Assembly: GCF_029227855.1 (NCBI RefSeq)
Contig: NZ_CP074356.1
Origin: Escherichia coli
GTDB taxonomy: Bacteria; Pseudomonadota; Gammaproteobacteria; Enterobacterales; Enterobacteriaceae
Length of the DNA stretch: 64,000 nucleotides
Direction: 5' to 3' (one strand)
Position 1 is the stretch's first letter; every line of letters starts with the position of its first letter. Below the pieces are notes generated by a model. That model did no database searches, was not told the DNA's origin, and saw nothing but the letters and a program-made list of their open reading frames with translations. Shown here piece after piece: positions 14,113-14,586 of this stretch. A program made the position numbers and the translations under genes.

Positions 14113-14586
14113 TCAGTCGATGATGCGCATAATGGCGCTGCATTCCGGATGCTGCAGGGCGTAATCCCGCAGCCGGTAATAATGGACCGTCATGGCATAA
14201 CACTCCGTACGACAGGCATGATGACTGTACGTCATCAGACAGGCAGCAATGCCGGCAGCTTCCGGACTCATTTCAGCGCGGTTACCGTTCATGGCATTGA
14301 ACAGTACCCATGTTTCGTCATCATCGTCATCCGGTTCGGGTGCCATAAATGCCCCGCCGTTGTTCAGGGTGTACAGATTCCAGATACCACCGCAGTAGTC
14401 TTCGCACAGACGGTCCATCCAGCCGAAGACACGGGGCTCCAGGGTCACCCACTGTGGAATGAGGCCAAAGTGCTGCGGCCAGAAGCTGATGCGCTGTTCA
14501 TCAGGGACGAGGGTGGCAACCAGTTGTTGCAGGTCAGTCTCCGGTGCACAGGCCGAAGAGGTGGTGTTCTGAGACAATGTTTTCAT
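14113..14586 (-). CDS. antirestriction protein (KlcA/ArdB-like, YfjX family)
   Basis: 157 aa from ATG at 14586; similarity to CP4-type antirestriction proteins as recalled. Confidence 0.7.
   Translation of the reverse strand: MKTLSQNTTSSACAPETDLQQLVATLVPDEQRISFWPQHFGLIPQWVTLEPRVFGWMDRLCEDYCGGIWNLYTLNNGGAFMAPEPDDDDDETWVLFNAMNGNRAEMSPEAAGIAACLMTYSHHACRTECYAMTVHYYRLRDYALQHPECSAIMRIID

Follow-up and report, generated by a model that had tools for sequence, protein, structure and literature searches.

A CFT073-type ArdB antirestriction gene in a decayed leuX island of Escherichia coli that probably inserted beside a resident restriction-like cassette

Small acidic proteins with which mobile elements defeat Type I restriction include ArdA and Ocr as well as the ArdB/KlcA family. 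The two groups have unrelated folds, and binding to the methyltransferase core, with a block of modification as well, is a property of ArdA and Ocr that ArdB and KlcA lack (PMC2836571). ArdB_CFT is a 157-aa protein of E. coli CFT073, encoded by ORF14 of PAI-II (NP_752219; Serfiotis-Mitsa et al.; PMC2836571). In 2009, ArdB_CFT and the K-12 proteins YafX and YfjX were reported to relieve Type IA, IB, IC and ID restriction in vivo; leaky expression of ArdB_CFT raised the plating of unmodified lambda 710-, 54-, 199- and 1174-fold against the IA, IB, IC and ID systems, with little antimodification (PMC2836571). Purified EcoKI was inhibited by none of the proteins studied, no binding of these proteins to EcoKI or to the EcoKI methyltransferase core was found, and ClpXP was dispensable for antirestriction by KlcA (PMC2836571). 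The plasmid protein ArdB(R64) partially inhibited EcoR124I and EcoAI in vitro, and a block of HsdR translocation was proposed (PMC10149784); at 30-fold molar excess it fully inhibited BlihIA in vitro, and its C-terminal aspartate (D141) is essential for activity (2025; PMC12429846). The in vitro evidence on the mechanism of the family conflicts, with EcoKI not inhibited and BlihIA inhibited.

We analysed a 64,000-nt stretch of an E. coli genome (NZ_CP074356.1; hereafter the window), in which the first-pass annotation had placed a KlcA/ArdB-like antirestriction gene at 14113-14586. This interval coincides exactly with an intact minus-strand coding sequence of 157 codons plus stop (ATG at 14586, TGA at 14115-14113) preceded by a good ribosome-binding site, and the family assignment is confirmed. 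The product (17.9 kDa and pI 4.58, computed; acidic) matches the full Pfam profile PF03230 'Antirestrict' (positions 1-92; E 2.2e-37; 127.5 bits against a curated cut-off of 25 bits). A phmmer search of all PDB sequences returned 2WJ9 as the best match (E 2.7e-110; 154/157 residues identical) and matched the KlcA structure 2KMG end to end (E 2.6e-21). We take 2WJ9 to be the structure of ArdB_CFT. An identical gene in strain E24377A is named 'antirestriction protein' in RefSeq (WP_000855059.1). PADLOC and NCBIfam models gave no match to the protein, and the blank PADLOC result was expected because PADLOC holds models of defence rather than anti-defence. No second ArdB copy was found in the window by tblastn. 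The features of the locus are collected in Table 1.

Table 1. Features of the ardB locus, the leuX borders and the adjoining cassette (window coordinates unless a comparison locus is named)
Feature	Coordinates	Strand	Basis or remark
Phosphorothioate-dependent HNH restriction endonuclease gene, 3' part, cut by window start	19..672	+	HNH_2; RefSeq name
Type III-like res, 1126-aa ResIII/DEAD helicase	1334..4714	-	PADLOC REase_III, 2326 bits
Type III-like mod (N6-adenine methyltransferase), split into two ORFs	4717..7853	-	
SNF2-family helicase, first cassette gene, outside island	7859..10750	-	DrmD-like, below DISARM cut-off
Degenerate copy of leuX 3' end, TGGTG-CGAAGGCCGGACTCAAAC, distal attachment-site repeat	11140..11162	.	
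DUF957 gene, last of island module	11661..11837	-	RefSeq annotation
DUF5983 gene	11854..12345	-	Pfam; RefSeq annotation
CbtA-family toxin	12342..12716	-	Pfam; RefSeq annotation
CbeA/YeeU-family type IV antitoxin	12806..13174	-	Pfam; RefSeq annotation
DUF987 gene	13337..13558	-	Pfam; RefSeq annotation
RadC-like JAB metalloprotease gene, paralogue of K-12 yfjY/lfgB	13621..14097	-	PF04002, E 3.7e-44; TIGR00608
ardB, ArdB/KlcA-family antirestriction gene, 157 aa	14113..14586	-	ORF; PF03230; 2WJ9 match; RefSeq name
Frameshifted remnant of conserved small Cys-rich ORF (intact form 81-87 aa)	14587..14928	-	Intact in A21 and O145; synteny
Ribosome-binding site AAGGA	14595..14599	-	8 nt 5' of ardB ATG; read from sequence
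DUF932 gene, upstream neighbour in array	14928..15746	-	PF06067, E 2.6e-52
tRNA-Leu(CAA), leuX, proximal island border	58230..58314	-	
Small Cys-rich gene, comparison loci	L006 2500-2745; L007 2495-2740; L008 5001-5264; L009 5001-5240		

Its sequence places the window gene among the ArdB-family antirestriction genes of the chromosomal-island subtype, to which ArdB of CFT073 PAI-II also belongs. The two share their length, their island type and their neighbours, and they differ at three residues (D18 for G, L26 for I and D63 for N), all at sites that also vary among paralogues, as well as in integration site, the window island lying at leuX. The K-12 proteins YfjX (LfgA, in CP4-57) and YafX (in CP4-6) belong to the same family and head operons of the same order (ardB, radC/JAB, DUF987, antitoxin, toxin), but their N-termini differ, and the window protein shares 75% identity with YfjX and 67% with YafX. 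Plasmid ArdB (pKM101, R64) and KlcA (IncP, pBP136; 2KMG) share the Pfam family and the C-terminal aspartate: the window protein ends in MRIID, and in the alignment its final residue corresponds to the last D of KlcA, YfjX and YafX. The plasmid proteins also show the phenotype of ArdB_CFT, antirestriction without antimodification by a protein that is not a DNA mimic.

Relief of Type I restriction has in effect already been tested, with a positive result, for the 98% identical ArdB_CFT, which gave 54- to 1174-fold relief. By analogy with that protein, ArdB in a Type I host would be expected to suppress DNA cleavage while leaving methylation essentially intact, and unmodified DNA would then survive and become modified in the ArdB-producing cell. 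It is small, acidic and globular, and not a DNA mimic. The proposal that we favour from the literature is that ArdB, in contact with DNA and with the restriction complex, blocks translocation or cleavage by HsdR, a translocation block being the best current inference. The family, the crystal structure of the 98% identical protein and its activity in vivo have been in the literature since 2009, and annotation of the gene extends to thousands of genomes; ardB of the window is in this respect an already known, characterised member of its family in the usual surroundings.

Copies of the gene were found in 4490 of 5426 complete E. coli genomes (12595 copies, a median of three), nearly always on the chromosome. 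ArdB/KlcA homologues are also found on 4674 plasmids, 3555 of them conjugative, and 4615 of these 4674 fall below 60% identity to the window protein. Since the plasmid homologues are mostly only ~27-37% identical to it, the island proteins form a distinct chromosomal subfamily. Compared pairwise with four paralogues (K-12 yfjX, yafX and two further island copies), the window gene has a dN/dS of 0.07-0.13, and its coding sequence is therefore under purifying selection.

A mechanical ORF call extends the gene to 284 aa (14113-14967, from a GTG at 14967). We rejected this ORF as a real gene, and the 157-aa form is preferred because the crystallised form and the RefSeq form both have 157 residues. 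The extension is instead what frameshifts have left of another, small gene. This gene is intact in strains A21 and O145, where it encodes an 81-aa 'hypothetical protein' rich in cysteine, its ATG overlapping the stop codon of the DUF932 gene (TGATG). The window copy carries insertions of +2 (~14771-14772) and +1 (~14668), and its frame shifts after codon 52. These insertions bypass the stop codon of the small ORF so that the open frame runs on into ardB, which explains the 284-aa ORF. A single open frame from the small-ORF ATG into ardB has the potential to encode a 271-aa fusion. Homologues of 79-87 aa with 53-65% identity occur in Enterobacter, Citrobacter, Klebsiella, Salmonella, Yersinia and Mixta and have the motif RS.SDDDLCAWC...YRPGE.SLC as an invariant feature; neither Pfam nor NCBIfam has a model of this family. 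The order DUF932, small ORF, ArdB, RadC is seen in the Yersinia and Citrobacter loci compared. In E. coli, the frameshifted 341-bp form appears to be commoner than the intact one.

On the minus strand, no sigma-70-like promoter was found in the 340 bp between the DUF932 gene and ardB, where the total number of sites was no greater than chance. Folded as single-stranded DNA, the minus strand of 14587-14927 reaches -66.3 kcal/mol, better than shuffled sequences (z -4.45). An Frpo-like single-stranded promoter 5' of ardB was considered and rejected, since the fold is multibranched, with short hairpins in place of a single long one, includes a terminator-like hairpin, and covers a decayed coding region. 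This terminator-like GC-rich hairpin lies at 14884-14855, within the remnant. An Rfam scan of 10700-16200 at a permissive threshold gave nothing relevant, its sole match being a sub-threshold NsiR1 (E 0.76).

The earlier description of the surroundings as a CP4-like module is confirmed by the neighbours (DUF932, RadC/JAB, DUF987, CbeA, CbtA and DUF5983). ardB is the first gene of a conserved array that continues with radC/JAB, whose start lies 15 nt past the ardB stop, DUF987, cbeA and cbtA, followed by DUF5983 and DUF957; upstream lie DUF932, a frameshifted DUF905, Ag43 and a YeeP-like GTPase. Synteny of the array is kept in the Yersinia and Citrobacter loci. In K-12, the corresponding genes yfjXY-ypjJ-yfjZ-ypjF are described as one operon, lfgABCDE, which is repressed by MqsA and induced by H2O2 in single cells, and the JAB protease LfgB degrades MqsA (PMC10846083). 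That yfjX (lfgA) heads such an operon raises the alternative of a domesticated host function, in which the ardB-led operon would serve stress physiology as lfgABCDE does in K-12 while antirestriction stays latent. The strong purifying selection on ardB, although the islands have decayed, would fit this alternative. However, the phenotype in K-12 maps to LfgB and not to LfgA/YfjX: that of the lfgA deletion could not be complemented and was ascribed to polarity on lfgB (PMC10846083), so these data assign no host role to the ArdB protein itself. Moreover, the region 5' of the window gene has no homology to the regions upstream of K-12 lfgA (yfjX) or yafX, and the window protein is, as given above, distinct from YfjX at a quarter of its residues. 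We therefore regard a domesticated host function as improbable, and prefer the reading of ardB as an antirestriction gene.

The island that carries the array is bordered by leuX and, at its other end, by a 23-nt repeat with one deletion and one mismatch relative to 24 nt of the leuX 3' end. Next to this repeat, on the cassette side, comes the native leuX terminator hairpin (11105-11124). A tRNA gene with a direct repeat of its 3' end, together with the existence of empty-site genomes, identifies a tRNA-integrated island of the CP4/P4 type. The island spans about 11163-58229, roughly 47 kb, with the ardB array at its integrase-distal end, and it is decayed. Beside leuX, the window holds fragmented ORFs only and no functional tyrosine integrase, and the matching locus of strain 64 is annotated as an integrase pseudogene, frameshifted and with an internal stop. 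Because the integrase is a pseudogene, a role of ardB in entry cannot operate for the present island. Its other content includes the fec operon, capU-virK-lpxM and many IS elements. Between 42471 and 46347, a polysaccharide deacetylase gene, capU, virK and an lpxM (msbB-like) paralogue are flanked by remnants of IS3-family elements. Gene sets of this polysaccharide deacetylase/capU/virK/lpxM type are known from virulence plasmids.

Such decay invites the view that ardB is a silent relic, intact but without effective expression or a role in the strain. The integrase pseudogene and the many IS elements are consistent with this, as are the frameshifts in the adjacent small ORF and in DUF905 and the failure to find a promoter-like site in the 340 bp upstream on the minus strand. 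Vector-only controls in K-12, which carries yafX and yfjX, also restrict lambda fully, as we read the published data (PMC2836571), and by inference native expression of these two genes is normally insufficient. Against silence stand the low dN/dS, the absence of disruption among thousands of ardB copies annotated intact, and the inducibility of the K-12 paralogue in single cells (PMC10846083). A silent relic is thus possible but unlikely, and we continue with ardB as a selected antirestriction gene.

The first-pass annotation had also reported a putative restriction-like cassette roughly 3.5 kb away. Both parts of this statement were upheld: the cassette comprises an SNF2 helicase and Type III-like Mod and Res proteins, and the nearest cassette gene end (10750) lies 3363 bp from the ardB stop. 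PADLOC models MTase_III and REase_III match the cassette over their full length, although Mod is 1040 aa long and an extra SNF2 gene is present. The catalytic part of Mod (residues 505-810) matches EcoP15I Mod (E 1.7e-39), the nearest solved relatives of the SNF2 helicase are RapA and ISWI, and Res has no relative among solved structures at E<=0.001. Classification as DISARM was rejected, as the SNF2 protein reaches 667 bits where the NCBIfam DrmD model requires 950 and no DrmA, DrmB or DrmC match was found among the cassette proteins, and so was classification as Hma, for which partner genes are missing and scores fall below the cut-off. The cassette is found in 191 of 5426 complete E. coli genomes, 150 of which cover at least 80% of it; in many of these 150, ~16% of the cassette, within mod, is unaligned, and this part looks like allelic target-recognition domains.

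The two mod ORFs of the window (459 and 560 aa) match one model at profile positions 1-458 and 486-1057, and the gene is intact in E24377A (1040 aa). The split results from the loss of one nucleotide from an A7 tract, now A6, at 6480-6485 (minus strand). Among 33 complete genomes with the same allele, the tract is A7 in 29 and A6 in two (H22 and MS 21-1), and PGAP labels the H22 copy 'frameshifted'. A sequencing artefact, a fixed pseudogene or slippage-driven switching (phase variation) might each account for the contraction. The first 25 kb of the window are 99.9% identical to E24377A with only two indels, both single-base homopolymer contractions, and the pattern common to both makes homopolymer sequencing error in the source assembly a possibility. 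The second (T9 to T8 at 21077-21084) puts a 305-aa hypothetical gene of the island out of frame. Type III Res requires Mod. If the mod frameshift is real, the cassette would therefore neither methylate nor restrict, and on this reading of the sequence it may be inactive in the window strain.

A successive acquisition of the two units had been suggested, and the comparison with other genomes bears this out. Strain H22 lacks the island: its cassette lies directly against an intact leuX, which is ~390 bp from the SNF2 start. Collinearity with H22 extends over window positions 248-11162, the last 24 nt of this match falling inside the tRNA, and the H22 sequence resumes from window position 58187. 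H22 and 35 others make up 36 complete genomes that hold the cassette next to intact leuX without the island, 102 have the cassette-island junction, and the same island end occurs without the cassette in ~2000. The G+C content of the cassette is 40.0%, against 54.3% for the ardB module. The H22 junction, the leuX repeat at 11140-11162, the G+C contrast and the independent distribution among genomes together place the cassette outside the ardB island. The cassette would have been present first, as resident DNA flanking leuX, and the island would later have inserted between leuX and the resident cassette, making the adjacency of the two a probable case of tandem accretion at a tRNA hot spot rather than a pairing of defence and anti-defence. 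Taken as a whole, we consider it highly probable that the window holds a CFT073-type, anti-Type I ArdB in a decayed leuX island that inserted beside a resident cassette. The anti-defence gene and the defence cassette would then be different insertion units stacked at leuX, and their proximity no sign of a functional pair.

A functional pairing would have ArdB neutralise the neighbouring SNF2 and Type III-like cassette, either so that the island can enter cells already carrying the cassette or to restrain the cassette in its own host. The two are 3.4 kb apart, with a junction common to 102 genomes; the cassette is non-canonical, with an SNF2 translocase in addition to a Mod of 1040 aa and a Res that has no solved relative; and should ArdB act by halting a translocating SF2 motor, a second motor of this class could conceivably be a target. 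Insertion of the island between leuX and a pre-existing cassette nevertheless argues against a dedicated pairing, as do the attachment-site remnant between the two units and the frameshift in the window mod gene. The distributions also disagree, since ardB occurs in 4490 genomes and the cassette in 191, less than 1% of the 12595 ardB copies lie near a cassette, and 36 genomes hold the cassette without the island. ArdB(R64) had no effect on Type III EcoPI or BREX (PMC10149784), a result that applies to a plasmid protein to which the island-type ArdB is ~30% identical and that, given the unusual composition of the cassette, may not transfer from EcoPI. On balance, a functional pairing of this kind is scarcely credible, and action of an island-type ArdB on the neighbouring cassette is very unlikely. 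A broader idea, which we hold to be a long shot, is that the island-type ArdB has wider or different targets, the cassette included, or serves the host as a stress-induced restriction-alleviation factor in an ardB-JAB-CbeA/CbtA operon; if true, most E. coli genomes would carry a regulated defence/anti-defence circuit. The stacking of separate insertion units remains our preferred account of the locus. Next to the cassette, and continuing to the left of the window, are the phosphorothioate-dependent HNH gene (ScoMcrA-like) and HNH fragments beside a truncated nanS, which together make up a small islet of defence genes beyond leuX.
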